Positions 2,478 to 55,351 of a stretch of 64,000 nt of DNA are shown piece by piece. Position numbers and translations under genes: made by a program. Within the stretch, counting starts at the first letter, position 1, and each line of letters opens with the position of its first letter. The notes under the pieces were generated by a model. The model made no database searches and was not told the DNA's origin. It was given only the letters and a program-made list of their open reading frames with translations. The DNA is from Paludibacteraceae bacterium. Lineage in GTDB: Bacteria > Bacteroidota > Bacteroidia > Bacteroidales > Paludibacteraceae. Location of the stretch: assembly GCA_017559385.1 (NCBI GenBank), contig JAFYSK010000051.1:25778-89777 (forward strand), read 5' to 3'.

Positions 2478-2485
2478 CAAAGGTA
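2478..2485 (-). promoter_or_regulatory. Bacteroidetes -7 box (TACCTTTG on the minus strand) for rseC-rnf
   Basis: Plus-strand caaaggta reads TACCTTTG on the minus strand and matches TAnnTTTG. It is preceded by a T-run and lies 26 nt upstream of the rseC ATG. Confidence 0.55.
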
Positions 2486-2506
2486 CAAAAAAATACGCAC
2501 ATACAC

Positions 2507-3051: not shown

Positions 3052-3059
3052 TACCTTTG
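3052..3059 (+). promoter_or_regulatory. -7 box TACCTTTG
   Basis: It sits in the context ttttttgtacctttgc, 41 nt upstream of the ATG at 3100. Confidence 0.55.
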
Positions 3060-3099
3060 CGCAAAATTCATGGACTTTCTTTTAAAAAAACAGAACTGT

Positions 3100-29522: not shown

Positions 29523-29547
29523 TAACCCTGTTCCCTCTGTTGTTTAC

Positions 29548-29617
29548 GGGTTCATGACGGGTTCATGACGGGTTGTTACCGAGAGAACACCGAGAGATCA
29601 CCGAGAGATCACCGAGG
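29548..29617. repeat. Two word arrays: 3 units of GGGTTCATGAC, then about 3.5 units of CGAGAGATCAC
   Basis: Read directly in the kinase-murQ spacer. Confidence 0.85.
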
Positions 29618-29645
29618 GAAAAGAAATGAAAAATACTGCAAAATT

Positions 29646-30464: not shown

Positions 30465-30507
30465 GACTAATCAATAAAGATAATAAATCATTTAATATCT
30501 GATATTT

Positions 30508-33732: not shown

Positions 33733-33752
33733 TCTAATATAATATAAGGAAT

Positions 33753-35576: not shown

Positions 35577-35609
35577 TTTAATATTCACGAATTTATAACT
35601 TTTGAAAAT

Positions 35610-36704: not shown

Positions 36705-36733
36705 TAAGTCTAATTTTGATAATACACAAAAAT

Positions 36734-38458
36734 ATGAAACGAGATTTTTTGAAAATGCTATTCATAGCACTTCTCCCTCTCTTTGCAGCGTCTTGTGTTC
36801 CAAACGTGCCTGAAGAAGAGGTGCTTCCAAGAGATGCGGTTTCTTTTGAATATTATATCGATCAAAATACAGATTCTAAATACTATTTGGATTTCTATGT
36901 TGATTCTGATATTACTTTCAAGAATACTTCTCCAGAAACTACTGTTGGTGAGCCAACATGGGACTTTGGTGATGGTACCGTTGAAACTGGCAATAATGTA
37001 ACTCACTTCTATGCAAAAGCCGGCACATATACCGTTAAACTTACCATTGGTGACTTCTCTGCTAAACAATCTATCATGATCGCGCCTATCAAACCTATCG
37101 TTAAGGTTGTATATGCTGATGAGGTTTGCGAGGTACGTAGCACTCCTGTTACTTTTGAGGTAGAGTTGCCTAACCCAAAGAACAAACCAGCTACATTCTA
37201 TTGGAGCTTCCCAGAAGATACAAAGAATCAAAATGATGAGGATTATGCTAGTTATGAAGGAAAAGGTGTGAAAGATCTTCCTGCTCCAGTAAAATTCTCT
37301 CACGTTGGTTCACAACAAGTACAACTTAACGTGAAACTTGGTGAGGACGATCTTGAGCCTACTTTCCTCAATGTGCAAGTGGCATATGATAAGGAAGTTC
37401 CAACTCTCTACTATGCTGTTGCTGGTGGCCCTATCAAGGCGCACAAATTGGCTAACGATGCTCCAGCTGATATGAAGATCTATTCATATGACCTTGGTGT
37501 AGCTTCTGGTCAACACCCATTGAATATCCTCTTCCATGACTCTCTGCTTTATGTTTTGGACGCAGGTAAACAATTCTACTATGTAAACGATGTAAATGGC
37601 GTTTTGGGTGATGGTAAGATTTCTGTTATCTCTAAAGATGGTAGCAAAGTTCAAACCATGATTTCTAATGCTGACCAAGCTGCGTTTGATGATCCATTCT
37701 ATGGTTGCATCGATGGCGACTACCTCTACTACGCTAACCGTAATACTGGTATAATCAAAGTTCCTTTGACAGATCGTGACAAAGTGTATAGCGTAAATGA
37801 TTATCCTTATTGGGTTCAAAATAATACTTTAGGTTACTATGCTAATGGTATTGCTTATGGTGCTATCGGTGGTATGTTTGGCAAAATCAATGGTATATGG
37901 CACTGGACTAAATTCTATAACGGTAATGGTATTTTCCGCTTTGAGGAAGGTGATATCCAACCTAAAGCTGTAGATGGTTCAGACAAGACTCTCATTCCTA
38001 AAGCTGGTATTATGCTTGAGAGTATGTGGCACAAGTCTTTTGCATATGCAGCTAAGAGTGCAACACCTAAACTCGTATTGCACATCATGGATGTAGGCTA
38101 TAATGGTGTATATGCTGCTACCTACGACGAGTTTAATGCTGTAGGTTCATCTAAAAATAGCATGAAACCTTATGCTGTGACTTACAATGGTATGATGTTT
38201 GAGAGTAATACAGCAGGTAACTTAGCGTCTAAGGAAGGTACTGGTACCGAATCTATTGGTATTTGCCAAATGACTTATGACGAGGTAAACGACTGTGTAT
38301 ATTTCGCTTATCGTAATAATGCTCCTGGCGGCGCTGGTAAATTCCCAGCAAGTGGTATCTACTCTTATCATGTAGCAACTGGTACCGTAACTTGCCTCGT
38401 TGAAGGTGTAGAAGCATACGGTGTAGCAGTAAATAATACTCCTTCTAAATTGTTCTAA
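36734..38458 (+). CDS. Lipoprotein with a PKD domain and a beta-propeller-like C-terminal region
   Basis: Lipobox FAASC and PKD signature WDFGDGTVETGNNVTHFYAKAGTYTVKLTIGD. I chose the ATG at 36734 over the TTG at 36716. Confidence 0.75.
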   Translation: MKRDFLKMLFIALLPLFAASCVPNVPEEEVLPRDAVSFEYYIDQNTDSKYYLDFYVDSDITFKNTSPETTVGEPTWDFGDGTVETGNNVTHFYAKAGTYTVKLTIGDFSAKQSIMIAPIKPIVKVVYADEVCEVRSTPVTFEVELPNPKNKPATFYWSFPEDTKNQNDEDYASYEGKGVKDLPAPVKFSHVGSQQVQLNVKLGEDDLEPTFLNVQVAYDKEVPTLYYAVAGGPIKAHKLANDAPADMKIYSYDLGVASGQHPLNILFHDSLLYVLDAGKQFYYVNDVNGVLGDGKISVISKDGSKVQTMISNADQAAFDDPFYGCIDGDYLYYANRNTGIIKVPLTDRDKVYSVNDYPYWVQNNTLGYYANGIAYGAIGGMFGKINGIWHWTKFYNGNGIFRFEEGDIQPKAVDGSDKTLIPKAGIMLESMWHKSFAYAAKSATPKLVLHIMDVGYNGVYAATYDEFNAVGSSKNSMKPYAVTYNGMMFESNTAGNLASKEGTGTESIGICQMTYDEVNDCVYFAYRNNAPGGAGKFPASGIYSYHVATGTVTCLVEGVEAYGVAVNNTPSKLF

Positions 38459-41004
38459 TGAAATTTATTCATAAAATATCTATTCTTGCTCTTGGCTTGT
38501 GCATGGCGCTTACGCTCCATGCACAGCCCAAGCGTGAGTTTCGTGCCTCATGGTTAACCACCGTGTGGGCAATCGATTGGCCTAATCCACATAGCCAAGC
38601 TGATGCTGCTGGCCAATTGAAGCAACAAAACCACATGATCTCGCTCATCAAACTCCACGAGAAGGCTAACCTCAATGCGGTCTTCTTCCAAGTACGTGGT
38701 TTCTGTGATGCGATGTATAAATCTGAGTACGAGCCTTGGAGTCAGTACCTCACAGGTACTCGAGGTGGCGAACCTACCTACGATCCTCTCCAACTCGTCA
38801 TTGACTCTGCCCACGCACGTGGTATTGAGGTACATGCGTGGCTCAACCCTTATCGTTATGCTTCTTCGGATGCTACTTACGGTAAGAATCACTCTAAGGA
38901 CTACTACAATACCCACCCAGAGTGGCTAGTTAAGTGTGGTGATATCACTATCCTCAATCCATCCCTACCTGAAGTGCGCGAGCAAATTTGCAAGGTAGTT
39001 GTTGACATCGTTAAGAACTACGACGTGGATGGTATTATCTTCGACGACTATTTCCATCAATCGGGTTATCAAAACTCGTATGATGATGCACAATATAATG
39101 CGTACAAGGACACAGCGGCTAATGCCATGTCTCGTGCAGACTGGCGCCGTGCACAAAACAATCTGATGGTGCGCATGGTTAATGAGGCTATCAAGGCTAC
39201 CAAACCTTGGGTCAAATTTGGTATCGGTCCTGCGGGTGTAGCAGGTAAGGCCAATACTTCTGCTCCTGTCTATGGCGTTGAACCTTGTCCTACTCCTTCA
39301 TCCGACTGGCAGTACAACCAAATTTATGCAGACCCTCTAGCATGGTACAACGAGAAGACCATCGATTATATGGCTCCTCAAATCTATTGGACCATCAGTT
39401 CTTGGGCCAACTATGATGTGATTTGTAAATGGTGGTCAGACATGGCTTGCCACTTCAATCGTCACATGTATGTGAGCCATAGCCTAAGTGCAATGGTAAG
39501 CGACAATGTTACATTGTCTAGCGGTCAATTCCATAAAAGTGAGATAGGCGCACAAATTGAACTCAATCGCCTTTACGATCGCATGGACGCCCCAGGTAGT
39601 TGCTGGTATGGCTTCTCTACAGGTATGTCCACCAAGGACTATTTCAACTACATCGAGTCTGATGTCAATACCAATGCAGCGGTAGTTCCTCAAATGTCTT
39701 GGCTCTCCACCAATGAGTGCCTCTACGTGAGCAATATCACCAAGTCGGGCAACAAACTGACTTGGAAAGCACCTAAAGAGAATCTCCGTTATGCAGTATA
39801 TCAAATCCCTACATCAGAGATTGGCAAACCAGGCGTAGCATATTCTAGCCAATATCTACTAGGTACTACTTATACCACAGAGTTTAATGTGGCTAATAAG
39901 TTTGCTTTGGATGCTTCTATTCCATTGGTTTATGCCGTGGCTGTATTGGATCGTTATGGCAACGAGCACCCTGCACGCACGATGGATAATACCTCATGGG
40001 GCAAGTCGCCTGTGGCGGAAATTACGTATCCTCTGAATAATGATGCTGCCCTCATGCCATGTAATGTGACATGGAAACCTGTCACGGGTGCTGACTCATA
40101 CTTCTTCCAACTCTCTAAGTCTGCTGACTTCTCTGAGATTGATTATGAGTACGAGGTTTCAGAGCCTACATTCTATTTGGGCAAGATCTATTGGCTCAAA
40201 TCCGATGGCACTTACTACTGGCGCGTGCGCACACGTAGTATAAATAAGGAAGATTCATTTACTGGGGTTCATTCCTTTAACGGATCTTATTTCCGTATGC
40301 AAAACCCTGCAGAAGGTGACACCCTAGACTTTGTTACTCCTACCTTCGTATGTGACAAGGTTAACTACTCAGAGGTTAAATACACCTTCGAACTCTCCAC
40401 TTCAGCCAAATTTGATGAGGCTTCTATGCTACACGTAGGTACTTCATCTACCAATAGCTACCAACTGCCATTTGATCTATTGGCTTCTCGTGATTATTAT
40501 ATCCGCGCAACAGCTGCATTCAATGGTATGGAGGTAATGACTACTACTACCAAGTTCCGCACCAAAGCACAATATGTGCCAGTTCCTGTCATCACATGGC
40601 CTACTAATGGCTTGAATGTCGCAGGTCAAGATCTTAAAGTGGTTTGGAAGAAACAAGCGTCATCCGGTTTCCAAGTGGAACTCAGTACTTCCAAATCGTT
40701 TGCGCCTCGTAATACTACGAAGATTCGTCTAGATGATCCTGCTGCAACATCTACCACTACCACTCTCAAAAGCGGTAAATGGTATATCCGTATGCAAGCT
40801 GTTGCCGAAGGCGGTTATACTGAATCTTCTAACGTGGTTGAAATTAATATGGGCGTTGATGGAGGTGTCAATGGATTGGAAGATCCTACTGCGGTTGAAG
40901 ATATTACTGTTTCTACCACTCCAACAAAGATCGTAGAGAACGGATATGTATATATCCTTCGTGATGGCAAACGCTATAACTTACTTGGCAATCACGTACA
41001 ATAG
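38458..41004 (+). CDS. Glycoside-hydrolase-like family 10 (GHL10/DUF187) protein with Ig-like repeats and a short conserved C-terminal tail
   Basis: REFRASWLTTVWAIDWP...GIEVHAWLNPYR... is typical of GHL10. SPI signal peptide. TAATG overlap with the upstream gene. Confidence 0.82.
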   Translation: MKFIHKISILALGLCMALTLHAQPKREFRASWLTTVWAIDWPNPHSQADAAGQLKQQNHMISLIKLHEKANLNAVFFQVRGFCDAMYKSEYEPWSQYLTGTRGGEPTYDPLQLVIDSAHARGIEVHAWLNPYRYASSDATYGKNHSKDYYNTHPEWLVKCGDITILNPSLPEVREQICKVVVDIVKNYDVDGIIFDDYFHQSGYQNSYDDAQYNAYKDTAANAMSRADWRRAQNNLMVRMVNEAIKATKPWVKFGIGPAGVAGKANTSAPVYGVEPCPTPSSDWQYNQIYADPLAWYNEKTIDYMAPQIYWTISSWANYDVICKWWSDMACHFNRHMYVSHSLSAMVSDNVTLSSGQFHKSEIGAQIELNRLYDRMDAPGSCWYGFSTGMSTKDYFNYIESDVNTNAAVVPQMSWLSTNECLYVSNITKSGNKLTWKAPKENLRYAVYQIPTSEIGKPGVAYSSQYLLGTTYTTEFNVANKFALDASIPLVYAVAVLDRYGNEHPARTMDNTSWGKSPVAEITYPLNNDAALMPCNVTWKPVTGADSYFFQLSKSADFSEIDYEYEVSEPTFYLGKIYWLKSDGTYYWRVRTRSINKEDSFTGVHSFNGSYFRMQNPAEGDTLDFVTPTFVCDKVNYSEVKYTFELSTSAKFDEASMLHVGTSSTNSYQLPFDLLASRDYYIRATAAFNGMEVMTTTTKFRTKAQYVPVPVITWPTNGLNVAGQDLKVVWKKQASSGFQVELSTSKSFAPRNTTKIRLDDPAATSTTTTLKSGKWYIRMQAVAEGGYTESSNVVEINMGVDGGVNGLEDPTAVEDITVSTTPTKIVENGYVYILRDGKRYNLLGNHVQ

Positions 41005-41006
41005 AC

Positions 41007-41083
41007 GCACTATTCACGCACAATAAATGCACAATAAATGCACAATAAATGCACAATAAACGCACAATTGACGCACAATAATG
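41007..41083. repeat. Seven tandem 11-mers (GCACAATAAAT variants)
   Basis: Counted unit by unit. It starts 3 nt after the GHL10 stop. Confidence 0.9.
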
Positions 41084-41309
41084 ATATGATTCCTGATAGA
41101 TAACCGAGGTAGAGGTATCACTAAGAAGTCCAGCAGCCGCGCAGCGGTGGTCTAACAACAAAGTGGTCCAACAGCCGAAGGCGGTCTTTCAGCGAAGCGG
41201 TCTTAAAAAATAAACAACACAATTTAATTACTTAACGCAACCGAGGTCCACCGTGGACGTGTCCACAACGGATGAGGAAGCAATTTATTAACCAAAAAAC
41301 AACAAATTT

Positions 41310-43772
41310 ATGAAAAGATTTTCAATCTTTTTTGCAGCTCTTTTTGTAGCTGTGACTTCATTTGCTGCCGTTTCTTATGAGTTGAACGGTGGTGTGACCA
41401 ATGACGACAATTGGTTGAGCAAAGGTGACATGTGGACAGCTTTCTGCGCTGACGCTGGTATTACCACTTTGGGTACTCTAGAAGAGGTAAAGGCTCTTGG
41501 TGACCCTTACTCTGCAATCTGTACTCCTCTTGCCACAGCTAACGCTCAGGCTATTCTTGACAATGCAAAATGGGACTGGCTCGAGGCTTACATCATGCAA
41601 GTTCAAAATGCTGACGCTGCTGCTACTGTTCTTGCAGAGGGTACTTCTGGCGCAGGTTGGCGTTATGCTTTTGCTGCTTTCTTCTTGGAAGGTAAACGCG
41701 CTTCATGGCCTGTATCTACAGACTTTGCTGTAGCTGGTACTCCAGAGGCTTTCATCCCATCCTGGAAACACGCTTTCGCTAACCCAACTGAGCCTACAGC
41801 TGAGTGGGTGTTGAACGCTCCTTACTACGAGGGTAAAACTTTCGACGGTTGGTACGCTGCTGCTGACTTCTCTGGCGACAAAGTTGTTAAAATCGACGCT
41901 ACTACTACTGGTACTCTCTACGCTAAATGGGTAGAGTATATCCCAAGTGTAGTTGAGGTTCGCGCTTTGGCTGACGATACCGAGACCAAGGTTTCTGGTG
42001 TTGTTAACTTCATCTCTGGCAAGAACATCTACATCCAAGACGCTACCGCTGGTATCCTTGTTTACACACTTGAGACTCCTAACTGCCAAGTAGGTGACAA
42101 GATCGTTGCTAAGGGTGTGAAAGTTATGTACGGTGGTGCTCCTGAGGTTAAGAGCGCTGTTATTGAGTCTACTGAGGCTGCTTCTGTAGCTGCTCCTACC
42201 GTATTCGAGACTTTGGCTGCACTTGTTGCTGACTCTCTCGAGCACAAATATTTCGCTACCAACGTTCAAATCGCTGGTGTAACTATCGTTGAGTACGATT
42301 CTTACAACAACCCAACTGTACAAGATGCTACTGGTGAGAAGGCTTTGTGCTACAAGATGGTACTTGATCCAGTTGCTTTCCCAATCGGTTCTAAAGTTAC
42401 TGTTACTGCTGTGGCTGGTTGGTACAATGGTTTCCAATTCGTTGGTGACGCTAAGAACATCGTTATCCCTGTTGCTGGCGTAGTTGAGGACTTCACATAT
42501 CCTGTTCGTCACGATGGTCGCTACTCTTTGAAGAACAACTGGGTAATCTCTAACATGGAGGATAACTATGCTGCTAACAAACCAGGTTCTAACGACTATG
42601 TTCGTGGTATGGCTGCTAGAAATGGTAAGATGTACTTCATCAACCGTGAGACTGAGTCTATCGTTGTTGTAGATGGTAAGACTGGTAACATGCTTGATCC
42701 TATTAAGCTTACTGGTGACCACCTCTTCCAAAAGGTTACAGGTACTGATTCTATTACAGGTGAGGCTACTTATGCTGCTGGTACTACCCTTCCTTTCAAC
42801 GATATCAAGTTCGACCAAGCTGGTAACTGCTTGATCGGTGCTTGTATGACAGGTGCTACTACATGCCAAACTTTCTTCATCTACGTTGTTGATCTTGAGA
42901 CTGGTGCTTGCACCAAGCTCATCGAGGACGTTCTCTGGGATAACCCAGGTTTGGATCAAGTACAATTCCGTTTCGACGCATTCGGTGCTGCTGGTGACGT
43001 AACCAAGAATGGTGTAGTTATGGCTGCTGATGCTAACGGTTCTTGGAACGTATATCGTTGGTTGATCACTGACGGTGTGGCAGGCGAAGGCGAGCAAGTA
43101 GCTGTTCTTCTTGACCCAGCTGTTGACCAATCACTCTATATCAATGCTGCTGGTTACGGTACAGCTCCTCAAATCTTCCCACAAGACGAGTTGGGTGAGC
43201 TCTTCTACGTAGACGGCTTCAACACATTGCCAATGTTGTTCTACGGTAACCCAGACGAGGGTGCTAACCTTATCGACGACTTCATCAACGTTCCTACTGG
43301 TGTTAAGGTTTGGAATAATGATGGTGACACTATTAAAATGAATGCAAACTTCAACGGTCTTGTTGAGTTCCAAGTAGGTGAGGAGTATTTCCTCTTGATG
43401 GTTGCTGCTAACAACACTCATAGCGTTCCTACTACTTACGCTCTCTACAAGTTCGCTGACGAAGACCGTGCATTCGCAGGTATGGAGCCACTTTGGTACT
43501 TCCCACACAACGGTCTTGGTACAACTACTATCGGTTGCCGTACAGCAACTCCTTCTGTTGACGTAGTTAGCGATACAGAGGCTACTCTCTACCTCTATGC
43601 TACCAACAATGGTTACGCTGCTTACACCTTGACTATCGATCCTACTATCATCTCTGCTGTAGAGGATGTTGAGACTGTTAAGGTTGAGGCTAAGAAGGTT
43701 ATCGAGAATGGCAACGTTGTTGTTATCAAGAACGGTGTTAAATACAACATGCTCGGTGCTGAGGTTAAGTAA
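41310..43772 (+). CDS. Secreted surface protein with an N-terminal Listeria-Bacteroides (InlB B-type) repeat and the conserved C-terminal tail
   Basis: SPI signal. YELNGGV...GKTFDGWY...GTLYAKW repeat signature. Codon usage is very strongly biased. Confidence 0.82.
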   Translation: MKRFSIFFAALFVAVTSFAAVSYELNGGVTNDDNWLSKGDMWTAFCADAGITTLGTLEEVKALGDPYSAICTPLATANAQAILDNAKWDWLEAYIMQVQNADAAATVLAEGTSGAGWRYAFAAFFLEGKRASWPVSTDFAVAGTPEAFIPSWKHAFANPTEPTAEWVLNAPYYEGKTFDGWYAAADFSGDKVVKIDATTTGTLYAKWVEYIPSVVEVRALADDTETKVSGVVNFISGKNIYIQDATAGILVYTLETPNCQVGDKIVAKGVKVMYGGAPEVKSAVIESTEAASVAAPTVFETLAALVADSLEHKYFATNVQIAGVTIVEYDSYNNPTVQDATGEKALCYKMVLDPVAFPIGSKVTVTAVAGWYNGFQFVGDAKNIVIPVAGVVEDFTYPVRHDGRYSLKNNWVISNMEDNYAANKPGSNDYVRGMAARNGKMYFINRETESIVVVDGKTGNMLDPIKLTGDHLFQKVTGTDSITGEATYAAGTTLPFNDIKFDQAGNCLIGACMTGATTCQTFFIYVVDLETGACTKLIEDVLWDNPGLDQVQFRFDAFGAAGDVTKNGVVMAADANGSWNVYRWLITDGVAGEGEQVAVLLDPAVDQSLYINAAGYGTAPQIFPQDELGELFYVDGFNTLPMLFYGNPDEGANLIDDFINVPTGVKVWNNDGDTIKMNANFNGLVEFQVGEEYFLLMVAANNTHSVPTTYALYKFADEDRAFAGMEPLWYFPHNGLGTTTIGCRTATPSVDVVSDTEATLYLYATNNGYAAYTLTIDPTIISAVEDVETVKVEAKKVIENGNVVVIKNGVKYNMLGAEVK

Positions 43773-43821
43773 TTCGCTAAGTTGTACTTAGGAGTTATAT
43801 AAACTCAAATAACCATAATCC

Positions 43822-43853
43822 AGGAGTGCGTCTTACGGCGCACTCCTTTTTTT
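43822..43853 (+). terminator. Rho-independent terminator
   Basis: aggagtgcg-tcttacgg-cgcactcct followed by ttttttt. Confidence 0.8.
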
Positions 43854-43905
43854 GTTTGTAGTATTTACGGAGGAATAATGGAGAGACTCATCGCTCCTCA
43901 TTTAT

Positions 43906-44019
43906 GTTCTTAGCCACAAGGGCACGATAGCGCTTCGCTCCTCCTTCGGAGTTCCTTCGGTCTTCCTTCGGAGTTCTTAGCCACAAGGGCACGATAACGC
44001 TTCGCTCCTCCTTCGGAGT
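43906..44019. repeat. Two 47-nt direct copies (period 67) of the dispersed GTTCTTAGCCACAAGGGCACGATA... repeat
   Basis: 43906-43952 and 43973-44019 differ at one base. Between them are TCCTTCGG words. Confidence 0.9.
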
Positions 44020-44103
44020 GGTAACGGAGAAGACAGGGTGGGAAAGTAGTGGGCATGTTGAAACTTTTTTTCGCAAACGTTTGTATATTTGAAAAAAAAG
44101 TAG

Positions 44104-44111
44104 TAACTTTG
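44104..44111 (+). promoter_or_regulatory. -7 box TAACTTTG
   Basis: 47 nt upstream of the ATG at 44158. Confidence 0.5.
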
Positions 44112-44157
44112 CGGGGTAATTTGTAAAATTGTATTATTACGTTAAATTTTATATACC

Positions 44158-46485
44158 ATGAAAAGAATTTTACTATCTTTGATTTCCCTTTTGTGTATAG
44201 CTTCTACGTATGCTATCTCATTAAATGGTAGAGAGTACACCATTGATACTCTCTCTATGTATCCTGTAGGTCCTGGTACTACTTTCTACGAGCTTCGCAT
44301 GCTTCGTGTAGATGCAGTTAGTCGTTTGGACTGCTGGCTGCTGGCAGTGGATACCCGTGATCCATATGTTTCTGTAGAGCAAGTTTTGGGTACTGGTAAA
44401 ATCTGTGGTACAGAGACTCCATCCAAGATGGCAACTCGTAGTACTACCGATAGCAAAATCTTCTTTGCTGGTGCTAATGGCGACTTCTTTACTACTCAAG
44501 ATGACCAATCTACCGCTGCTTATCACGAAGTAGGTATGCCTGTTAGTACCACAATCGTGAATAGCGAGTATGCGCATACTCCGATTGCTAATCGTACCAA
44601 ACGCCGATTAGGTGCTATTGATGCAGACGGTAAAGGTATTACTGCTGTTACTCATACAATTGCTATGCATCTTGTGTTGGCGGATACTACTCTTGAAATC
44701 AAACATGCTAACTATCTCCGCAAAGACAACGAGTTGGTTCTTTATAATATCCACAATGGTACAACTACAGCTACCAATGCTTATGGTACTGAGGTGCAAA
44801 TTCAATTGCTAGATGGCCAGAAATGGCAAACTTCAGGTACTATGAAGGCTAAAGTAACCAAGGTGGAGGATCAAGTAGGATCCATGCCTCTTGATAAGGA
44901 TCATGCTGTTCTGTCAGGTCATGGTACCATGGCTACAGAGTTGAACAAACTCAAAGTGGGTGATGAGATTACACTTGATTTTGAAATCAAATTCGAGGAC
45001 AAACTCGTTAATATCGCTCAAGCAATAGGTAGTGATAATTATACTCAAATCCTTGTAAATGGTAATGTGGCACAAGACGGTTTCTGGAATGAATTGCACC
45101 CACGTACTGGTTTTGGTGTATCACAAACACGCGATACAGTGTTTATGTTAGTTGTGGATGGTCGTAGCGCTATCAGTGCCGGTTGTACAACCAAAGTGTT
45201 GGCTGAGATTCTTCAACATTATGGTGCATACAATGCCGTAAACTGGGACGGTGGCGGCAGTTCTTGCCTCTATATACGCCCTATGGGTCAAATGAATAAT
45301 GGTTCTGATGGTGGTGAACGTGCGTGTGGTAATGGTATGTTTGCAGTAGCTAATGTGCCAGAAACAGATAACACCATTGCTAAGATCGCACCTTATCAAC
45401 CTATTTATCCTCTTCCACGTTACGGTGTGGCTGCTCCTCAGTTCTTGGGTTATAACAAGTATGGTGTGCTTGTAGAGACAAACGTGTCTGGTGTTACACT
45501 ATCATGCGCTCCTGAAGTAGGTGAGATTTTGCCTGATGGTCGCTTCTTAGCTTCTGGTGAGAATGGTGGAAAATTGGTGGCAACCTATGGTGATGTTACA
45601 ACCGAATTGGAGGTACGTTTGATGGCTTCTGCTCCTGTTGCTATTCGTCTAGATTCTGTTATTTGCGATATCTTACATCCATACAAGGTAGAGGTACAAG
45701 GTGCTATTGGTAATAGTTATGTAGAAGTGCTCGCTGATGCTTTAGAGTGGGAATCTTTAGATCCTACAATTGCAACTGTAAATGAAAAAGGTGAAGTTAC
45801 TGGTGTTAAGAATGGTAGAACAATCGTAGTAGGTACGCTAGGTGAATTTGCAGATAGCATTATTGTTGATGTGGAGATTCCAGAAGCCAATAAGATTGTG
45901 TGGGATGATTTCCGTAATGCCGCTTCTTGGGAGATTAAAGGATCACCTACATCTTTCAAGCCATCTCTGTCTGTTCCAGAAGATCCTAATGCTCCTGTTA
46001 ACTTGCTCTTTACTTACGGATCAGGACGTAACCCATTCATCCAATTATCTAAAGACTCGCTTCTCTATTCTAAACCAGAGAAAATTCTTGTTCCAATAAC
46101 TACTAATGCAGTGTTCGAGAAAGTAATCGTGATGATTCGCGCGAATAATTCTAACACCACAGAGCAAATTACTTTCTTGAATCCAAAAGCAGGTGAGGAG
46201 AATATTTTGGAGATTGATGTAAAAGAGCGCTTTGGCGCAGATGTTGCCATTTATCCTTTACACTTCCTCTCTTTGAAGATGGTTCCTACTTCTGAGACTA
46301 CCAAAGGTGAATGTTATGTGACTCTTCCTGGTATTATTGAGGTGTTTACAGAGGAAACAACCGATGTGGAGAATATCACCACCTCTAGCTCAAGTACCGC
46401 TGCTAAATTTATCAAAGACGGTTCGTTGTATATCCAATCAATGGATAAGGTTTATGATGTGTTAGGAGTGCAAGTTAGCAAATAA
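44158..46485 (+). CDS. Phosphodiester glycosidase (DUF2233 / NAGPA-like) protein with a Big_2 domain and the conserved C-terminal tail
   Basis: NAVNWDGGGSS hallmark motif, Big_2-like LDPTIATVNEKGEVTGVKNGRTIVVG, and an SPI signal. Confidence 0.82.
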   Translation: MKRILLSLISLLCIASTYAISLNGREYTIDTLSMYPVGPGTTFYELRMLRVDAVSRLDCWLLAVDTRDPYVSVEQVLGTGKICGTETPSKMATRSTTDSKIFFAGANGDFFTTQDDQSTAAYHEVGMPVSTTIVNSEYAHTPIANRTKRRLGAIDADGKGITAVTHTIAMHLVLADTTLEIKHANYLRKDNELVLYNIHNGTTTATNAYGTEVQIQLLDGQKWQTSGTMKAKVTKVEDQVGSMPLDKDHAVLSGHGTMATELNKLKVGDEITLDFEIKFEDKLVNIAQAIGSDNYTQILVNGNVAQDGFWNELHPRTGFGVSQTRDTVFMLVVDGRSAISAGCTTKVLAEILQHYGAYNAVNWDGGGSSCLYIRPMGQMNNGSDGGERACGNGMFAVANVPETDNTIAKIAPYQPIYPLPRYGVAAPQFLGYNKYGVLVETNVSGVTLSCAPEVGEILPDGRFLASGENGGKLVATYGDVTTELEVRLMASAPVAIRLDSVICDILHPYKVEVQGAIGNSYVEVLADALEWESLDPTIATVNEKGEVTGVKNGRTIVVGTLGEFADSIIVDVEIPEANKIVWDDFRNAASWEIKGSPTSFKPSLSVPEDPNAPVNLLFTYGSGRNPFIQLSKDSLLYSKPEKILVPITTNAVFEKVIVMIRANNSNTTEQITFLNPKAGEENILEIDVKERFGADVAIYPLHFLSLKMVPTSETTKGECYVTLPGIIEVFTEETTDVENITTSSSSTAAKFIKDGSLYIQSMDKVYDVLGVQVSK

Positions 46486-46494
46486 TCATTCATT

Positions 46495-48789
46495 ATGAAA
46501 AGAATACTATTCTCTTTATTTTCTCTCTTATGCATAGCGTCATCCTATGCTATATCCCTAAATGGTATAGAATATACTATTGATACCTTATCTATGTTTC
46601 CTGCAGGTCCGGGTTCCACCTATTATGAGCTACGACTTCTTCGTGCTGACAATGGTTTGGGACGCTTAGATGCATTCCTCTTAGCAGTAGATACCCGTGA
46701 TCCTTATGTGCAAGTGCAACAGGTCTTGGGTAAAGGTAAGGTTACTGGTTGTGAGGTACCATCTAGTATGGCAAAACGTAGCACTACCGATAAGGAGATT
46801 TATTTTGGTGGAGTCAATGGCGACTTCTTTGCTTACGAAGCTCCTGTAGGTACTACAATTATCAATGGTCAGTATGCCCTCACACCTTTTGGTTCTGGTG
46901 GAGGTCGTCGTCATGGCGGTATTGATGCTGAAGGTAGAGGCGTAACGGCTTATACTCATACCTATTCTATGAAGGTTACAACGCCTGCGAATGCGACTCT
47001 TGATATACATCACGTAAATGACTATCGCGATGAAAATCAATTGGTTCTCTTTAATCATCATTTGGGCACCACTACTGGAACTAATGCCTATGGAACAGAA
47101 GTGAAAATCCAATTGCTAGAAGGAGAGACCTGGAAAACAACCGGTACTATGAAGGCTAAAGTGCTTGCCAAAGAAGAAAATGTAGGTTCTATGCCTCTAG
47201 CGGCTGGTTATGCAGTTCTTTCTGGTCATGGCTCGATGCAACAAGCATTGAATCAGCTCAATGTGGGTGATGAACTTACACTTTCATTCGAACTACGTCT
47301 GGATGATGAACTAGTTAATGTGGCGCAGTTCATAGGTGGTGATCATTATGAAGCTATGATTCTGGATGATGGCAAGGTAGCTCAATCTGGTTTCTGGAAC
47401 GAATTGCACCCTCGTACCGGTTTCGGTGTTTCTCAAACCCGTGATACTATCTTTATGATGGTGGTTGATGGTCGTGGTGTAAGTAAAGGTTGTACCACTA
47501 AAGTAATGGCTGAGATTCTCAAGCATCATGGTGCTTGGAATGCTGTCAACTGGGATGGCGGTGGTAGTTCCTGTATGTATATTCGCCCATTTGATCAAAT
47601 GAATAATGGTTCAGATGGTAAAGAACGTGCCGTTACCAATGCAATGTTTGCAGTGGCTCACGTACCAGAAGTAGATACTAATGTGGTTGCTATTGCGCCT
47701 TATATGCCAAACTATTATTTGCCTCGTTATGGTGTGGCAGCACCTCAATTCTTGGGCTATAACAAGTATGGCGTGCTTGTTGAGACCAACGTGACTGGTG
47801 TTAAACTCTCTTGCGCTCCAGAAGTAGGTGAGATTCTCGAGGATGGCCGTTTCTTGGCTACTGGAGAAAAGGGAGGAAAGTTGGTGGCTACTTGGGGTGA
47901 TGTAACAACGGAATTAGATGTTCGTATATCTTCTACAGCTCCTATCGCTATACGAATAGATACAGTTTTGTGTGGTCCTCAACCATACAAAGTGGAGGTT
48001 GAAGGTACTGTAGGTAATAATACGGTAGAAATCTTGTCAAGTGCATTGACTTGGAGTTCAGCCGATCCTACCATTGCTACAGTGGACGAGGAGGGTAATG
48101 TAGAAGGTAAGAAAAATGGTATGGTAGTGATTACTGGTAAATTGGGTACATTCACCGATCAAATCGTGGTTAAAGTAGAATTTCCAGAATCAGATCCATT
48201 GATTTGGGATGATTTCCGTCAAGCAAGCTCATGGGAATTGAAAGGATCACCTACATCTTTCAAGCCATCTCTGTCTGTTCCTGAAGATCCAAATGCCCCT
48301 GTTAACTTGATGTTTACATATGGTTCTGGACGTAATCCTTTTGTCCAATTGTCTAAGGATTCTCTTCTCTATTCTACACCAGACAAAATCCGTGTTCCTT
48401 TGACTACAAATGCGGTGTTTGAGAAGGTGATTGTGATGATTCGTGCGAATAATTCTACTACCACAGATCAGATAACATTCCTTAATCCTAAAGCAGGTGA
48501 GGAGAATGTTCTTGAGATTGATGTGAAAGAACGTTTTGGAGATGATGCAGCCATTTATCCATTGCGTTTCCTAGCTTTGAAGATGATACCTACTTCTGAA
48601 ACACCCAAAGGTGAATGCTATGTGACGCTTCCTGGAATTATTGAGGTGTTCTCTGAGCAAACTACTGATCTAGAAGATGTGACTTCTAATCAATCATCTA
48701 CGAATGTGAAATATATCCAAAATGGCAATTTGTATATCCAAACGGTGGATAAAATATACAATATATTAGGTGCTGAAGTAAGCAAATAA
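46495..48789 (+). CDS. Phosphodiester glycosidase (DUF2233 / NAGPA-like), tandem paralogue
   Basis: It is collinear with the preceding protein over its full length and has the same motifs (NAVNWDGGGSS, Big_2, C-terminal tail). Confidence 0.82.
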   Translation: MKRILFSLFSLLCIASSYAISLNGIEYTIDTLSMFPAGPGSTYYELRLLRADNGLGRLDAFLLAVDTRDPYVQVQQVLGKGKVTGCEVPSSMAKRSTTDKEIYFGGVNGDFFAYEAPVGTTIINGQYALTPFGSGGGRRHGGIDAEGRGVTAYTHTYSMKVTTPANATLDIHHVNDYRDENQLVLFNHHLGTTTGTNAYGTEVKIQLLEGETWKTTGTMKAKVLAKEENVGSMPLAAGYAVLSGHGSMQQALNQLNVGDELTLSFELRLDDELVNVAQFIGGDHYEAMILDDGKVAQSGFWNELHPRTGFGVSQTRDTIFMMVVDGRGVSKGCTTKVMAEILKHHGAWNAVNWDGGGSSCMYIRPFDQMNNGSDGKERAVTNAMFAVAHVPEVDTNVVAIAPYMPNYYLPRYGVAAPQFLGYNKYGVLVETNVTGVKLSCAPEVGEILEDGRFLATGEKGGKLVATWGDVTTELDVRISSTAPIAIRIDTVLCGPQPYKVEVEGTVGNNTVEILSSALTWSSADPTIATVDEEGNVEGKKNGMVVITGKLGTFTDQIVVKVEFPESDPLIWDDFRQASSWELKGSPTSFKPSLSVPEDPNAPVNLMFTYGSGRNPFVQLSKDSLLYSTPDKIRVPLTTNAVFEKVIVMIRANNSTTTDQITFLNPKAGEENVLEIDVKERFGDDAAIYPLRFLALKMIPTSETPKGECYVTLPGIIEVFSEQTTDLEDVTSNQSSTNVKYIQNGNLYIQTVDKIYNILGAEVSK

Positions 48790-48812
48790 AATATCACTTA
48801 AATTTAATCAAT

Positions 48813-51809
48813 ATGAAAAAAACATTTCTATTTCTTCTTGGAATCTCCGCTGCCTTGATGGCAAGTGCTGAGATCCGTGTACTTAGCAATGTGAAATTAG
48901 GCGAAGGATTTTTCCCTCGCTTTGCAGATGCTGAGACTGTTACTTATCTTACGAGTGAAAATGCTGATTATGTCACTGTTGCTGACGAGGCAGACTTGCG
49001 CGTAGATAATGAGAATTTGGACCTTAACCTATATCGCAATGGCGAAAAGGTTGTGCTCAAACCTCATGGTGATGTTAACTATATTTGGGCGTCTCTTTCT
49101 CCTGACCAAACCATGATTCTTTTCAACACCAAGTATGGTACTGCTGTATGTGACCTTAATGGTAATGAAATGATTAATCTAGGTAATGTGAATGCTCCAG
49201 TATGGTATGGCAATGACTATATCGTCGGTATGAATGATTTGCACGATGGATATCATTTTACATCATCTAATATCGTTATCGCTTCTGTGGATGGTACCGA
49301 GCGTCAAGAATTGACAGACGCTGTGGAAATGGGTTATTATCCAGATGTAGATGCTAAGTCTGGTCGAATCGTATATCACACAGAAAAAGGTCAAATCCGT
49401 TTGATGCAATTGAATTTGACTGAAGAGCCTGTTCGTACCAACTTGCCTCGCTTGCTACAAAAGCCTGACGGAACCTTGCTCAACCAAATGAAACGCCAAG
49501 CTAAACGTGCGTCTTCTACCAATCCTGCCGATTACAAGATTTATATCAACCCTGGTCATGGTGGTTATGACTCCGATGACCGTTTGATGTATCTATATCC
49601 AATCTTCGTAAATCAAGTAGTGCAAGAACCTTATACCCGTGAACAAAGTTTCTGGGAGAGTACTTCCAACCTTGATAAAGGTCTTCGCTTGGATACTATG
49701 CTTCGTGCATTGGGCTTCCAAACCAAACTCTCTCGTATTACTAATACTACTGCAGATGACCGTAGTCTTTCAGGAATTTCTGCGGAGGCAAGTCAATGGA
49801 ATGCAGATTTCATGCTTTCTATCCACTCCAACGCAGGTAATCCATCCAACTATGTTCTTCAACTCCACTCAGGTATTACTCCTGGCGACCCTTATGGTTT
49901 GAATGGTTATCCAGAGAAAGTGCCAGAATGGGTATGCGACGAGGCACGCAAAATTACCACATTGATGGGTAATAACCAATATTCTAACCAAGTTAGCTGC
50001 TGGTCACGCGAGCCAAATATCGCAGGTGATAAGACTTTTGCGCGTACCATCATGGGATGGTCTAATGGTTATGGTGTTATGCGTAACTTGAAAGTGCCTG
50101 GTACAATCTCAGAGGGTATGATGCACGACTACTTGCCTGAGACATATCGCTTGGTAAATATTGATTACAAACGCCAAGAGTCTTTCCAATTTGCTAAAAC
50201 TTTCTACACCTACTTCTGTGGAAAAGAGCTTCCATATGGTGCTATTGGTGGCAAACTTCACGACGTATACCAAAAACAATTGTTCCCAGATTATAAGGCT
50301 CGCAAAGGTTCGCGCGACGAGTATCGCCCAATCTTGAAAGGTTTGGTGGAGTTGTGGCAAAATGATCAGTTGCTAAAGACATACGTTACTGATACTCTTT
50401 ATAATGGTGTGTACTATTTCTGGGATCTCAAACCAGGTACCTACGTTGTAAAGGCAAAGCCAGAAGGTTATTATCCACAAGAGCAAACAATTGAGGTGAA
50501 GAATAATGAAATTTCTTATGGTATCTTTGCTCTTTCTTTGCAACGCCAAACACCTCCTGTAGTTTTGGATTACAGTCCAAAGGTAGAACTTACAGATAGC
50601 GTTTTAGTTTCCACTCAACTTACTATCTCTTTCAACTGGGATATGAACGAGGAGGAAACAGCTAAGGCTCTCCAAATCTCACCAGCCGTAGAGGGTACTA
50701 TCACATTTGAAGATGATGCCCACACTATGCGCTTCAAACCTGCATCACGTTTTGAGCCAGGTGTTGAATATACTGTTACCTTGGGCACTGGCGCTTGCCA
50801 CCCTGATACAATGTTTAACAATCATTTGCAAGAGCCATTTACCTTCAAGTTCCGTACTCAAAACCGTGGTTCAGTGCGTGTAATGCAAACTTATCCTACA
50901 AATGGCTCAGAGAATATTCCTGTAGATGCAGCGTTTATTGCTATCTTTGATGGTAAGTTGGCTAACTCATCTAACAAATACTTCAAGGTGTATGACTCTG
51001 CAGGCAATGATATTAGCCCTGTTTCTCGTAACGTGAAACTGAATGGTGTAGCTCCTGCTCCTTATGGATCAGCTAAGTTCGAGTTGAAAGCCGGTACATT
51101 GAAACCAAACTCTGAGTACAAGATGGTTATTGGTGCTGAGGTTGCTGATGTTAATGGTGTGCTTGTGAACGATCCTGTTACTGTTACCTTTAAAACAGGT
51201 GACGAGGTGACATCTACTCTTCCTATATTGAATAACTTGGATACGCTCTATTTTGAGGGAGACAAAGAAACTTCAACCGGCGTTGCATCTGTTTCTACAC
51301 TTAGAAATACTGCGTCTAAATATGAGGGTTTGGCTTCTAATAAGTTGACCTATACATTCTCAGAAGCAAATGGCGAGGCTATTTATGTTGTAGATGATGT
51401 TACAGCTATCAAGGGTAATAGTCTTTCTACATTCGGTATGCATGTATTTGGTGATTATACATTCAATACCCTATATGCAAAATGGGCTGTTGAAGGTGAT
51501 ATTCAATACACTAAGATTTGCGATCTTGACTATGCTGGATGGTTGTATCAAGAAGCTGATATGTCTGCCCTTCCTGCAGGTGTTGACTATCAGTTTATGG
51601 GCTTCAAGTTAGTTCGTGGTACATCTTTCCTTTCAGAGAAGGGTGAGATTAGTATCGATGCATTGCGTGTTCAATTTGAGTCTACACCAAATGCTGTAGA
51701 AAATGTTGAAACTACAAACCAAACCAATAGCAAGAAAATCAATAATGGTTACTTGTATATTATGAAGAATGATGTTGAGTACAATATCCAAGGTGCTGTT
51801 GTGAAATAA
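48813..51809 (+). CDS. Multidomain secreted N-acetylmuramoyl-L-alanine amidase (Amidase_3) with a propeller-like N-domain, SbsA-Ig-like repeats and the conserved C-terminal tail
   Basis: IYINPGHGGYDSDDR...MLSIHSNAG... are Amidase_3 motifs. The later segments ...TISFNWDM....TVTLG are Ig-like. Confidence 0.8.
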   Translation: MKKTFLFLLGISAALMASAEIRVLSNVKLGEGFFPRFADAETVTYLTSENADYVTVADEADLRVDNENLDLNLYRNGEKVVLKPHGDVNYIWASLSPDQTMILFNTKYGTAVCDLNGNEMINLGNVNAPVWYGNDYIVGMNDLHDGYHFTSSNIVIASVDGTERQELTDAVEMGYYPDVDAKSGRIVYHTEKGQIRLMQLNLTEEPVRTNLPRLLQKPDGTLLNQMKRQAKRASSTNPADYKIYINPGHGGYDSDDRLMYLYPIFVNQVVQEPYTREQSFWESTSNLDKGLRLDTMLRALGFQTKLSRITNTTADDRSLSGISAEASQWNADFMLSIHSNAGNPSNYVLQLHSGITPGDPYGLNGYPEKVPEWVCDEARKITTLMGNNQYSNQVSCWSREPNIAGDKTFARTIMGWSNGYGVMRNLKVPGTISEGMMHDYLPETYRLVNIDYKRQESFQFAKTFYTYFCGKELPYGAIGGKLHDVYQKQLFPDYKARKGSRDEYRPILKGLVELWQNDQLLKTYVTDTLYNGVYYFWDLKPGTYVVKAKPEGYYPQEQTIEVKNNEISYGIFALSLQRQTPPVVLDYSPKVELTDSVLVSTQLTISFNWDMNEEETAKALQISPAVEGTITFEDDAHTMRFKPASRFEPGVEYTVTLGTGACHPDTMFNNHLQEPFTFKFRTQNRGSVRVMQTYPTNGSENIPVDAAFIAIFDGKLANSSNKYFKVYDSAGNDISPVSRNVKLNGVAPAPYGSAKFELKAGTLKPNSEYKMVIGAEVADVNGVLVNDPVTVTFKTGDEVTSTLPILNNLDTLYFEGDKETSTGVASVSTLRNTASKYEGLASNKLTYTFSEANGEAIYVVDDVTAIKGNSLSTFGMHVFGDYTFNTLYAKWAVEGDIQYTKICDLDYAGWLYQEADMSALPAGVDYQFMGFKLVRGTSFLSEKGEISIDALRVQFESTPNAVENVETTNQTNSKKINNGYLYIMKNDVEYNIQGAVVK

Positions 51810-52024: not shown

Positions 52025-55000
52025 ATGGGTTTTATTGACATTATTACGAAACTATTTGGCAACAAGTCTCAAAAGGATATGAAGGCTGTTATGCCATACG
52101 TAGATAAGATCAAAACAGTGTATGCAGAGATAGATGCACTAAGTGATGATGATTTGCGTGCACGTAGCGCATTGTTGATGCAACGCTTGCAAGATGCAGT
52201 GGCTGATAATAAAAGCAAAATCATAGAATTAAAAGCAGGTATCGAGGAGCTAGAGATTGATCAACGCGAGAAAGTATATAATGAGATCGATCATCTTCAA
52301 AAACAGGTGCTTGATATCTATGATAAGACATTGATGGATATATTGCCTGATGCATTTGCTATTGTTAAGAGTACTGCGCGTCGTTTCGCTCAGAACGAAA
52401 CCATTGAGGTTACCGCTACCTCGATGGATCGCGACTTGGCTGCCGATCCTCGTTTTGACTTTGTTGAAATCGAAGGTGACAAAGCAATCTATCATAACTC
52501 ATGGACTGCTGGTGGTAACGAAGTGATATGGGATATGGTGCACTACGATGTGCAACTCATTGGTGGTATAGTTCTACACGAAGGTAAGATCGCAGAGATG
52601 GCCACAGGTGAAGGTAAGACCTTGGTGGCTACATTGCCAGTCTTCCTCAATGCCTTGACCCACGAAGGTGTTCATGTGGTGACTGTCAACGATTATCTGG
52701 CTAAACGTGACTCAGAATGGATGGGTCCTCTATACATGTTCCATGGTTTGACGGTAGATTGTATTGACAAACACAAACCTAATTCAGACGAACGACGCAA
52801 AGCATATGCTTGTGATATCACTTTTGGTACAAATAATGAGTTTGGTTTTGACTACTTGCGCGACAATATGGCAACAAGTCCTATGGATCTAGTACAGCGT
52901 AGTCATAATTATGCTATTGTGGATGAGGTGGACTCTGTATTGATTGATGACGCTCGTACGCCGTTGATTATCAGTGGACCAATTCCAAAGGGTGAGGTAC
53001 AAATGTACGATGAATATAAACATCGTGTTGAATTGCTCGTTCGTACTCAAAACTCATTAACGACTAAGTTACTAGCAGAGGCGAAAGCCAAAATGTCAAG
53101 CGAGGACGAAAAGGAGCGCGAAGCTGGTGAGTTGGCGCTCTTCAGAGCATTCAAGGGTATGCCTAAGAGTAAGGCCCTTATTAAATATCTAAGTGAACCC
53201 GGTGTCAAGGTGCGTCTGCAGAAGACAGAGACCTTCTATATGCAGGAGAATGAGAAGAATATGCATATTGCAACCGACGAACTATACTTTGTTATTGATG
53301 AAAAGCATAAGACGATTGAGTTGACAGATAAGGGTATTGATACCTTGACTGGTAACACAGATGACCCTAAGTTCTTTGTGCTTCCTGATGTGGGTTCCGA
53401 GGTGGCTGAAATTGAAAAGTCATCTTTGTCTGCCGAGGAGAAACAGCAGAAGAAGGATGAAATCCTAGCAAGTTACAGCATCAAGTCAGAACGTGTGCAT
53501 ACCGTTCACCAACTGCTCAAAGCATACACTCTCTTTGAGAAGGATGTAGACTATATCATTGATGATAATCAAGTAAAGATCGTTGACGAGCAAACGGGTC
53601 GTGTTATGGATGGCCGTCGTTGGTCCGATGGATTGCATCAAGCTGTCGAGGCAAAGGAGAATGTTAAGGTTGAAGGAGCTACCCAAACCTTTGCTACCAT
53701 TACCTTGCAAAACTACTTCCGTATGTACCACAAACTTGCAGGTATGACCGGTACTGCAGAAACAGAGGCAGGTGAGTTTTGGAATATCTATAAGTTGGAT
53801 GTGGTAGTAATTCCTACCAATCGACCTATTGCTCGTGATGATATGAATGATAGATTATATCGTACGAAACGCGAGAAGTATAATGCGGTAATTGAGGAGA
53901 TCGTTCAGCTTGTAGCTGCAGGTCGCCCTGTACTTGTTGGTACTACATCTGTGGAGATCAGTGAGTTGCTTAGCCGAATGCTCAATATCCGCAAGATCAA
54001 ACATAATGTATTGAATGCTAAGCTCCACCAACATGAGGCCATGATTGTTGCAGAGGCTGGTCGCCCAGGCGTAGTAACTATTGCAACCAATATGGCCGGT
54101 CGTGGTACCGATATCAAGCTTACTCAAGCGGTTAAGGATGCTGGTGGTTTGGCTATCATTGGTACTGAGCGTCATGAGAGCCGTCGCGTGGATCGCCAGT
54201 TGCGTGGTCGTGCTGGTCGTCAGGGTGACCCAGGTTCTAGTGTGTTTTACCTGAGTATGGAGGATGATTTGATGCGTATGTTTGGTTCGGAGCGTCTTGC
54301 TGGACTCATGGATAAGATGGGTATTCAAGAAGGCGAGGTTATTGAACATAATATGATGTCTAATGCTGTTGAACGCGCTCAAAAGAAGGTAGAGGAAAAC
54401 AACTTTGGTATGCGTAAACGACTCATTGAGTACGATGATGTCATGAATCAACAGCGTAATGTTATCTATGCAAAACGCCACCACGCCTTGATGGGTGAAC
54501 GTATCGGAGTAGATATCACCAACATGATTTATGACACTGCATATGCAATGCTTGAGAATGCTCGAGCTATGATGGATTATGAGGGATTGCAACTCGATGT
54601 TATGCAAGTGTTTGCTATGGAAGTGCCATTTGACGAAGATACCTTCCGTTCTGGCAGAGAAAATGTCCTATCTGATAAACTTGCGGAGGCAGCATTGGAT
54701 GTCTTTAAACGTCGCATGGAAACATTGCAAAAAGTGGCATATCCTGTCATTAAGAAAGTATATGAGGAACGTGGTGCAATGTATGAGAATATCCTCATTC
54801 CTATCACAGATGGCAAAAAAGTCTACAATGTAGCGGTCAACCTCAAAGAGGCTTATGAGACAGAATGTAAGGCGATTGTTCGTGAGTTTGAAAAACGCAT
54901 GGTTCTTTTCGTTATTGACGATGAGTGGAAAGATCATCTTCGTCAATTAGATGACTTAAAGCAGTCTGTGCAAAATGCTAGTTATGAGCAAAAGGATCCT

Positions 55001-55351
55001 CTATTGATCTACAAGCTGGAGTCATTCAATATATTCAAACAAATGTTGGACAACTTCAATAGACGCACCATTTCAATTCTGCTGCGTGGTCAGATTCCTA
55101 ATCGAGATCCTGAGGATGTGCGTCAAGCACATGCACAACAACGCCAGGATTATTCACGCTATCGTACCCAGAAGGATGCTGTAGCTAAGGCTGCAGCTGC
55201 TAGCGGACAAGCTGCTGCTGCGGGTAGAGATACACGCGAGCAACAACGCCCAGAGCCTCTTCGTGTGGAGAAAAAACCACGCCCTAATGATCCATGTCCT
55301 TGTGGATCAGGCAAAAAGTATAAACAGTGTCACGGTAAAATCGAAGCATGA
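52025..55351 (+). CDS. secA: Preprotein translocase ATPase SecA
   Basis: Walker [33 protein letters not shown], and the C-terminal zinc motif [14 protein letters not shown]. Confidence 0.97.

Follow-up and report, generated by a model that had tools for sequence, protein, structure and literature searches.

A short conserved C-terminal tail on exported Bacteroidales proteins as a candidate secretion or anchoring signal

We describe a C-terminal tail of about 38 residues that is shared by five consecutive secreted proteins in a 64,000-nucleotide stretch of a Paludibacteraceae bacterium genome (GenBank assembly GCA_017559385.1, contig JAFYSK010000051.1, positions 25,778 to 89,777 of the forward strand; hereafter the window) and that recurs on many unrelated exported proteins of related metagenome bins. 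The tail is absent from the curated libraries Pfam and NCBIfam, and we regard it as a candidate new form of C-terminal secretion or anchoring signal of the Bacteroidota. Most likely it is a miniature export or anchoring signal overlooked by standard predictors. The more specific proposal, that it acts as a compact and clade-specific type IX secretion system (T9SS) signal and is cleaved at a T|A boundary, has in our view about an even chance of being correct. In the literature we found no description of this tail, of a short or novel class of T9SS C-terminal domain (CTD), or of T9SS in Paludibacteraceae.

The tail and the proteins that carry it

The original prediction, made from the window alone, had quoted five C-termini, all of which are present letter for letter. 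They terminate a GHL10 family glycoside-hydrolase-like protein (AVEDITVSTTPTKIVENGYVYILRDGKRYNLLGNHVQ, preceded by T; 40891–41001), an 820-aa hypothetical protein (AVEDVETVKVEAKKVIENGNVVVIKNGVKYNMLGAEVK; 43656–43769), two phosphodiester glycosidase (NAGPA) proteins (DVENITTSSSSTAAKFIKDGSLYIQSMDKVYDVLGVQVSK; 46363–46482, and DLEDVTSNQSSTNVKYIQNGNLYIQTVDKIYNILGAEVSK; 48667–48786) and an amidase (AVENVETTNQTNSKKINNGYLYIMKNDVEYNIQGAVVK, preceded by N; 51693–51806), each on the + strand. The N-termini of the five proteins resemble signal peptidase I (SPI) signals, as had been proposed, and the SusD and two accessory proteins of the same locus, described as tail-less lipoproteins, do carry lipoboxes (LFTSC, ATASC and FAASC) and lack the tail. 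When a hidden Markov model (HMM) of the five tails was run against all six-frame open reading frames (ORFs) of the window, only these five matched, at the extreme C-terminus and with 62–72 bits; the next best ORF scored 9.5 bits. Each tail was found again when left out of the model (E = 1e-9 to 6e-12, against a background of E ≥ 0.02), and with both NAGPA paralogs left out the first was still recovered at 6.7e-5. Ungapped DNA identity between the tails is only 26–63%, so they are conserved at the protein level, and a recent duplication of tail DNA is ruled out.

Searching the five-tail profile against 1.84 billion representative proteins (whole-library E ≤ 0.001) delimited a family of at least 1,887 clusters at 50% identity. 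Among the best 150 database matches, the match ended 0–5 residues from the C-terminus in every case and at the very last residue in 94. Two tail peptides, used to scan the genomes of GTDB species, yielded 109 confirmed matches, of which the best 80 loci were analysed. In these a family HMM detected 130 tails, 50 more than the 80 used for fetching, and all 130 end 0–10 residues before the stop codon; no credible internal copy was found. Tails occur at least twice in 35 of the 80 loci, with seven consecutive tailed genes in one (L007) and the GHL10...NAGPA arrangement of the window in another (L011). By label, 41 loci belong to Paludibacteraceae and 34 to uncultured or unclassified Bacteroidales, from metagenome bins of rumen, hindgut and human gut; the other five are singletons. 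One singleton lies in a bin named 'Agathobacter rectalis', on a contig that is probably mis-binned since it also encodes a canonical T9SS CTD protein.

The tail is strongly associated with SPI signals. Of the ORFs in the 80 loci, 369 reach 250 aa or more, and 113 of these carry the tail; a crude rule classed 99 of these 113 carriers as SPI-type non-lipoproteins (odds ratio 29, p = 2.7e-36), the remaining 14 being cut at contig ends or having obvious signal peptides that the rule missed. With every one of the 150 and 130 matches terminal and the carriers of SPI type, the motif is neither internal nor a feature of cytoplasmic proteins, and the proposed role as a sorting or anchoring tag gains support, by inference, from this distribution.

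In the loci, the proteins bearing the tail represent 48 families of passenger that are unrelated to one another. In 92 full-length database members they include BspA-type leucine-rich repeats (LRRs), InlB B-repeats, Listeria-Bacteroides repeats, Big_2, CHB_HEX_C, CBM26/X25, SusE/F-like and OB-fold/DUF6359 domains. These modules are surface or extracellular types, and domains of such kinds bear type A CTDs in other Bacteroidota. The passengers bear on a reading that we consider very unlikely, in which tailed proteins stay in the periplasm and the tail serves them there, for instance by tethering them to a periplasmic partner or peptidoglycan, or as a tag for stability or quality control. An SPI signal without lipidation, as found on the tailed proteins, is the usual mark of periplasmic enzymes encoded by polysaccharide utilisation loci (PULs), and the window amidase, GHL10 and NAGPA proteins could work together with MurQ on muropeptides after their import, downstream of SusC. 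However, BspA LRRs, InlB repeats, CBM26/X25 and SusE/F-like modules are passengers family-wide, tailed genes are very frequent (50 extra tails in the loci, and close to a third of the long ORFs), and tailed genes can stand up to seven in a row, which is reminiscent of surface-protein repertoires.

Within the tail, a [T/S]-A-V-E-N-V motif is followed by a variable linker of 6–10 residues and a 24-residue segment ending in V-K, together forming a self-contained unit. Conservation starts sharply at position -1 (T 63%, S 22%) and is nil at positions -40 to -3. Position 0 is A (87%) or D (12%), followed by V-E(75%)-N-V; the linker is rich in T, V, A, E and K. The conserved core reads K13 (100%)-x-I-E-N-G(97%)-Q-x-x-I(96%)-x-x-x-G-x-x-Y(93%)-N-x-x-G33(100%)-x-x-V-K(95%), with the terminal K in 95% of aligned members. 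AlphaFold2 (AF2) predicted the tail of the 820-aa protein, from a 57-sequence alignment, as a three-stranded β-meander (pLDDT 88; strands 12–17, 20–25 and 28–30), and when the C-terminal 150 aa of the GHL10 protein were modelled, the AVEDI-containing linker was disordered (pLDDT < 50), with a separate three-stranded meander after it. These models portray the tail as a conserved linear motif in a flexible linker joined to a mini-domain. Foldseek found nothing in the PDB at E ≤ 0.001 for the 38-residue model, which is too small to inform, and a PDB sequence search with the tail profile gave matches at chance level only (best ATV ORF273, E = 0.047).

Several other explanations were rejected. A hidden longer domain is ruled out, as nothing is conserved upstream of the tail, and so is a lipoprotein or transmembrane anchor, given that the carriers are SPI-type non-lipoproteins and the tail has no hydrophobic helix. 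Sortase- and exosortase-type signals (LPXTG, PEP-CTERM, GlyGly-CTERM) are likewise rejected: besides lacking that helix, the tail has charged residues throughout and only β-strands in the AF2 models. The C-terminal β-signal of outer-membrane β-barrels ends in an aromatic residue, usually F, which is the last residue of the SusC in the window cluster; of 277 tails, by contrast, 148 have K as their last residue and five have F. Similarity to a single choline-binding-type cell-wall repeat has no Pfam support.

Relationship to catalogued signals and docking modules

The tail was compared with known CTDs by scanning Pfam-A and NCBIfam with whole proteins at E ≤ 1 and with tails alone at E ≤ 10. None of the five whole proteins matched TIGR04183, TIGR04131, NF033708, PF18962 or PF19910, no CTD family was matched by the five tails or by 58 diverse family tails taken one by one, and the DUF6383 model did not match the tail. 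A 2129-aa protein of the window (6134–12523), to which a classical CTD had been ascribed, served as a positive control in the same scans and did match: it bears a canonical type A CTD (6137–6376, − strand; TIGR04183 9.9e-7, 28.7 bits against a cutoff of 23; PF18962 4.8e-4) that also grazes the type C model NF033708 at E = 0.028. Close relatives of this protein are annotated 'T9SS type A sorting domain-containing protein [Paludibacteraceae bacterium]', and its passenger region has no Pfam match on record. In the PDB its CTD matched only an ice-binding protein CTD. A local iterative search from this CTD, run over 869 ORF C-termini, recovered no more than 2 canonical CTDs, and an NCBIfam scan of 150 non-tailed C-termini gave fewer than nine TIGR04183 matches. 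The lack of any curated HMM match and of conservation upstream agrees with the original prediction that the tail differs from the canonical T9SS CTD; it is certainly something other than the terminal strands of a catalogued CTD.

Profile comparison with hhalign gave a 2.2% probability for the tail against same-clade type A CTDs with a shallow profile, and 25.7% (P = 7e-4; reversed-tail control 1.1%) when 281 tails were compared with 15 clade CTDs. The comparison is limited to these 15 because homologs were too few for a deep CTD profile; word-indexed searches had returned 11 short fragments for the tail alignment, and three and then 11 close relatives for the CTD of the 2129-aa protein. The aligned stretch covers the last 15 tail columns (22–36; I.r.G..YNvlG..V) and the central YDlsGrV strand of the CTD. 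This match, the terminal K shared with type A CTDs, and a locus protein (L004) in which TAVENV is joined to a YDLMGR-type ending, hinting at shared ancestry, are what speaks for the tail being just a part of the catalogued type A CTD, truncated or diverged almost beyond recognition, known already and merely missed by the curated HMMs. We regard this as distinctly improbable, since 63 tails lack a CTD-family match even at the permissive threshold, the 38-residue unit has a sharp boundary with nothing conserved before it, and its predicted strands number three, not seven. Moreover, the weak match lies in the middle of the CTD and not in the terminal, functional motifs D (GxY) and E (a Lys close to the C-terminus). 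Even with shared ancestry the architecture would be different, and predictors built on existing models would miss the tail. As judged from these alignments, a distant common origin of tail and type A CTD is possible but unsupported.

Other short C-terminal endings occur on SPI-type proteins of the same clade, with a YDxLGR strand and then GIYIxNGKxxIK, and resemble the C-terminal half of a type A CTD. Examples are ...WYDVLGRETAAPTESGIYIHNGKVVIK in L009 and ...TAVENVRPFDSSAPCYDLMGRQIDCQTCNQVVLQNGCKRLRKNIE in L004 (both − strand ORFs) and ...VVIKVTTYSDGT..KVIK in L069 and L070. Among paralogs in L006, two have the tail and one (7804–9141, + strand) has a different short ending of this CTD-half-like kind. 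None of these endings matches an NCBIfam CTD model at E ≤ 10, and the clade may hold several uncatalogued mini-signals.

The tail resembles the type A CTD (TIGR04183/PF18962) in its position at the very end of non-lipidated proteins that are Sec/SPI-exported and have passengers of extracellular type, in its predicted all-β structure with a conserved Lys at the end, in boundary residues compatible with the cleavage site of the sortase PorU, and in its occurrence in Bacteroidales beside canonical CTD proteins, without a dedicated neighbour gene. It differs in size (38 residues as opposed to 70–100), in having three predicted strands where the CTD is a seven-strand Ig-like sandwich (PMC10202324), in the lack of a curated HMM match and of clearly recognisable motifs A–E, in the strongly conserved linear [T/S]AVENV at its boundary, and in its taxonomic range, with 75 of the best 80 loci, all metagenome bins, labelled as Paludibacteraceae or unclassified Bacteroidales. 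Types B (TIGR04131) and C (NF033708, ChiA-like) are alternative C-terminal T9SS signals that, like the tail, differ from type A in sequence; however, their CTDs are about 100 residues or longer, their models do not match the tail, and type B substrates pair with adjacent PorP/SprF-like genes, whereas no recurrent neighbour of this kind was found for tailed genes in the 80 loci.

The nearest experimental parallel is HBP35 of P. gingivalis, where a stretch of 22 residues at the end of the CTD, with motifs D and E, suffices for secretion of GFP and the C-terminal lysines are required (PMC10202324); a very short T9SS signal can thus work. Like this signal, the tail is a β-hairpin-sized C-terminal peptide ending in Lys, although it shows no profile similarity to the D/E region. 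The HBP35 peptide is an experimental truncation of a full CTD (PMC10202324), whereas the tail is a natural, conserved state throughout its clusters.

Dockerins offer a different comparison. Like them, the tail follows a linker as a compact module at the C-terminus and is found on many unrelated enzymes and carbohydrate-binding modules, but it has no duplicated calcium-binding F-hand or DxDxNGxIDxxD repeats and no Pfam dockerin match, is predicted to be all-β rather than helical, and has no identified cohesin-like partner. One contig labelled 'bacterium UBA1790' (L021) encodes two proteins that end in dockerin-like double repeats (GDVDGNGVIDITD...) beside a tailed protein. The first of them (1325–3775, + strand) is a homolog of the window NAGPA proteins with the repeat exactly where the others have the tail; the second is a − strand ORF. 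This substitution suggests that the tail could be a non-covalent, dockerin-analogous docking module and not an export signal, with the meander binding a surface receptor or glycan and keeping PUL enzymes and binding proteins near SusC/SusD. The predicted small autonomous fold on a flexible linker would suit a docking module, and many of the carriers, being PUL-type enzymes and carbohydrate-binding modules, have to be kept at the surface; SusC genes were found in eight of the 80 loci. We nevertheless see only a limited possibility that this is the function of the tail. Docking leaves unexplained how SPI-type, non-lipidated proteins without another CTD cross the outer membrane, and no recurrent receptor-like neighbour gene was found in the 80 loci. 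A docking module need not occupy the last residues, yet most of the best database matches end precisely there, and the sharply conserved [T/S]AVENV in a disordered linker resembles a processing site, not a binding surface.

A possible route across the outer membrane

Tailed proteins are SPI-type, non-lipidated and carry extracellular passengers, and therefore need a route across the outer membrane; the known route in Bacteroidota for such proteins uses a C-terminal signal. We therefore hypothesise that the tail directs its carriers through T9SS. In such a scheme the SPI signal peptide would bring the protein through Sec into the periplasm, where the passenger and the three-stranded meander (invariant K13 and G33, near-invariant terminal V-K) would fold. 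The T9SS translocon and a PorV-type shuttle would then recognise the meander. Past the outer membrane, a PorU-type sortase would cut the flexible linker at [T/S]|A-V-E-N-V, with the enzyme released or fixed to the cell surface. In the window this would place the amidase, the GHL10 protein, the two phosphodiester glycosidases and the repeat protein outside the cell, from where cell-wall fragments would pass to SusC/SusD and MurQ. Dependence on T9SS, recognition by PorV, cleavage and attachment of the tail are what we infer here from sequence, models and precedent.

Several observations are consistent with this scheme. Canonical type A CTD proteins share contigs with tailed proteins, both in the window and in L069, and CTD proteins are known to track T9SS core genes (PMC10202324), which together are indirect evidence for T9SS in these genomes. 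When the 369 ORFs of the 80 loci were clustered, no recurrent gene family was found beside tailed genes except one syntenic housekeeping block, and the absence of a partner gene fits a general machinery encoded elsewhere. A sigma-54-dependent activator, present in 12 loci, forms a syntenic block with three further conserved genes beside an 18-member tailed family of about 565 aa; examples are L023, L030, L031, L040, L044, L048, L057, L067, L078 and others. In structures of the translocon, a near-invariant Lys near the C-terminus is the only conserved contact of the CTD (PMC10994853). The PorU site in P. gingivalis is T/E/D/N | G/A/S (PMC10202324), with which the putative tail boundary of T or S (85%) followed by A (87%) would be compatible, and the T/S|A region falls in the disordered linker in the AF2 model of the GHL10 C-terminus. 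The exchange of the tail for a CTD-half-like ending among the L006 paralogs also speaks for this reading.

Other observations weigh against a T9SS signal. No T9SS component gene was found in the window, in the 10-kb flanks of its contig or in the 80 loci, and the presence of the system in these genomes is thus deduced from the CTD proteins. Recognition of a type A CTD involves a folded domain of seven strands that fills a large PorV/SprA pocket (PMC10994853), of which a three-stranded meander of 24 residues, if folded as modelled, would fill far less. The tail hairpin has no profile similarity to the terminal motifs D and E (suboptimal alignments ≤ 0.13%), its weak likeness (26%) being to the central YDxxGxxV strand only. 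The two NAGPA tails of the window have D, and not G/A/S, at the putative P1' position. Lastly, SPI-type PUL enzymes can equally well be periplasmic.

A sorting route independent of T9SS would also accommodate the tail, and although we think it unlikely, the tail would then be the address label of a route that, in this clade of Bacteroidales, takes the place of anchoring PUL enzymes as lipoproteins. Such a label might act by β-augmentation onto a dedicated outer-membrane or surface-layer receptor, or as a signal for loading outer-membrane vesicles, and [T/S]AVENV would be the recognition site of a processing enzyme.

Should the tail be a T9SS signal, predicting cargo by TIGR04183/PF18962 overlooks the greater part of the secretome in an abundant, uncultured Bacteroidales lineage of gut and rumen, including many PUL enzymes and carbohydrate-binding proteins. 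It would then be a natural counterpart of the finding that about 22 residues suffice for T9SS export, and would offer a clean minimal system for studying recognition by the translocon and a practical 38-residue tag for secretion engineering. If it is independent of T9SS, it marks an unknown surface-sorting route in Bacteroidota. In either case a family HMM can be built, and annotation pipelines could flag tailed proteins that are now named by their passenger or as hypothetical.

The gene cluster in the window

The five tailed genes are consecutive on the + strand (38458–51809) and close the end of a longer cluster. The GHL10 protein (848 aa, 38458–41004; PF02638 1.2e-65) has an SPI signal and fn3-like C-terminal domains before the tail, and is identical in sequence to MBR5328130.1, a record named 'family 10 glycosylhydrolase'. 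It is followed by the 820-aa hypothetical protein (41310–43772; identical to MBR5328131.1), with an SPI signal, a weak Listeria-Bacteroides repeat and the tail. The two paralogous NAGPA (DUF2233) and Big_2 proteins, of 775 aa (44158–46485; PF09992 2.9e-21) and 764 aa (46495–48789; PF09992 2.4e-21), and the Amidase_3 and Big_5 protein of 998 aa (48813–51809; PF01520 6e-8, PF13205 2e-18) all likewise have an SPI signal and the tail. Current PGAP names of the five proteins refer to passenger domains or are hypothetical only.

The upstream part of the cluster (28665–38458, + strand) encodes a BadF-type sugar kinase, a MurQ etherase (TIGR00274, 314.9 bits against an equivalog cutoff of 302), SusC (TIGR04056 match), SusD and the two tail-less lipoproteins, with gaps of -1 to 43 bp. 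A NagB-like/PIG-L fusion on the − strand (26341–28332) is listed with the cluster, which then spans 26341–51809. The whole has the look of a PUL devoted to peptidoglycan or to cell-wall material that contains MurNAc, in which an amidase and glycosidases at the cell surface would make functional sense. A SpoIID/LytB-domain protein is encoded elsewhere in the window (16913–18184, − strand).

The cluster is tightly packed except around the 820-aa gene, which is flanked by long gaps of 305 bp (41005–41309) and 385 bp (43773–44157). Antisense to this gene lies a 475-aa ORF (41703–43130, − strand) with a high content of S, T and V, which has the appearance of a shadow ORF and not of a gene. Directly downstream of the five tailed genes are secA and lgt, which encodes the prolipoprotein diacylglyceryl transferase (52025–56259, + strand), followed by a DUF3078 gene and housekeeping genes; the adjacency of secA and lgt to the tailed genes is probably coincidental. 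The window also encodes a fused type IIG-like restriction-modification methyltransferase with N6_Mtase, Eco57I and TaqI_C domains (21233–23116, − strand).

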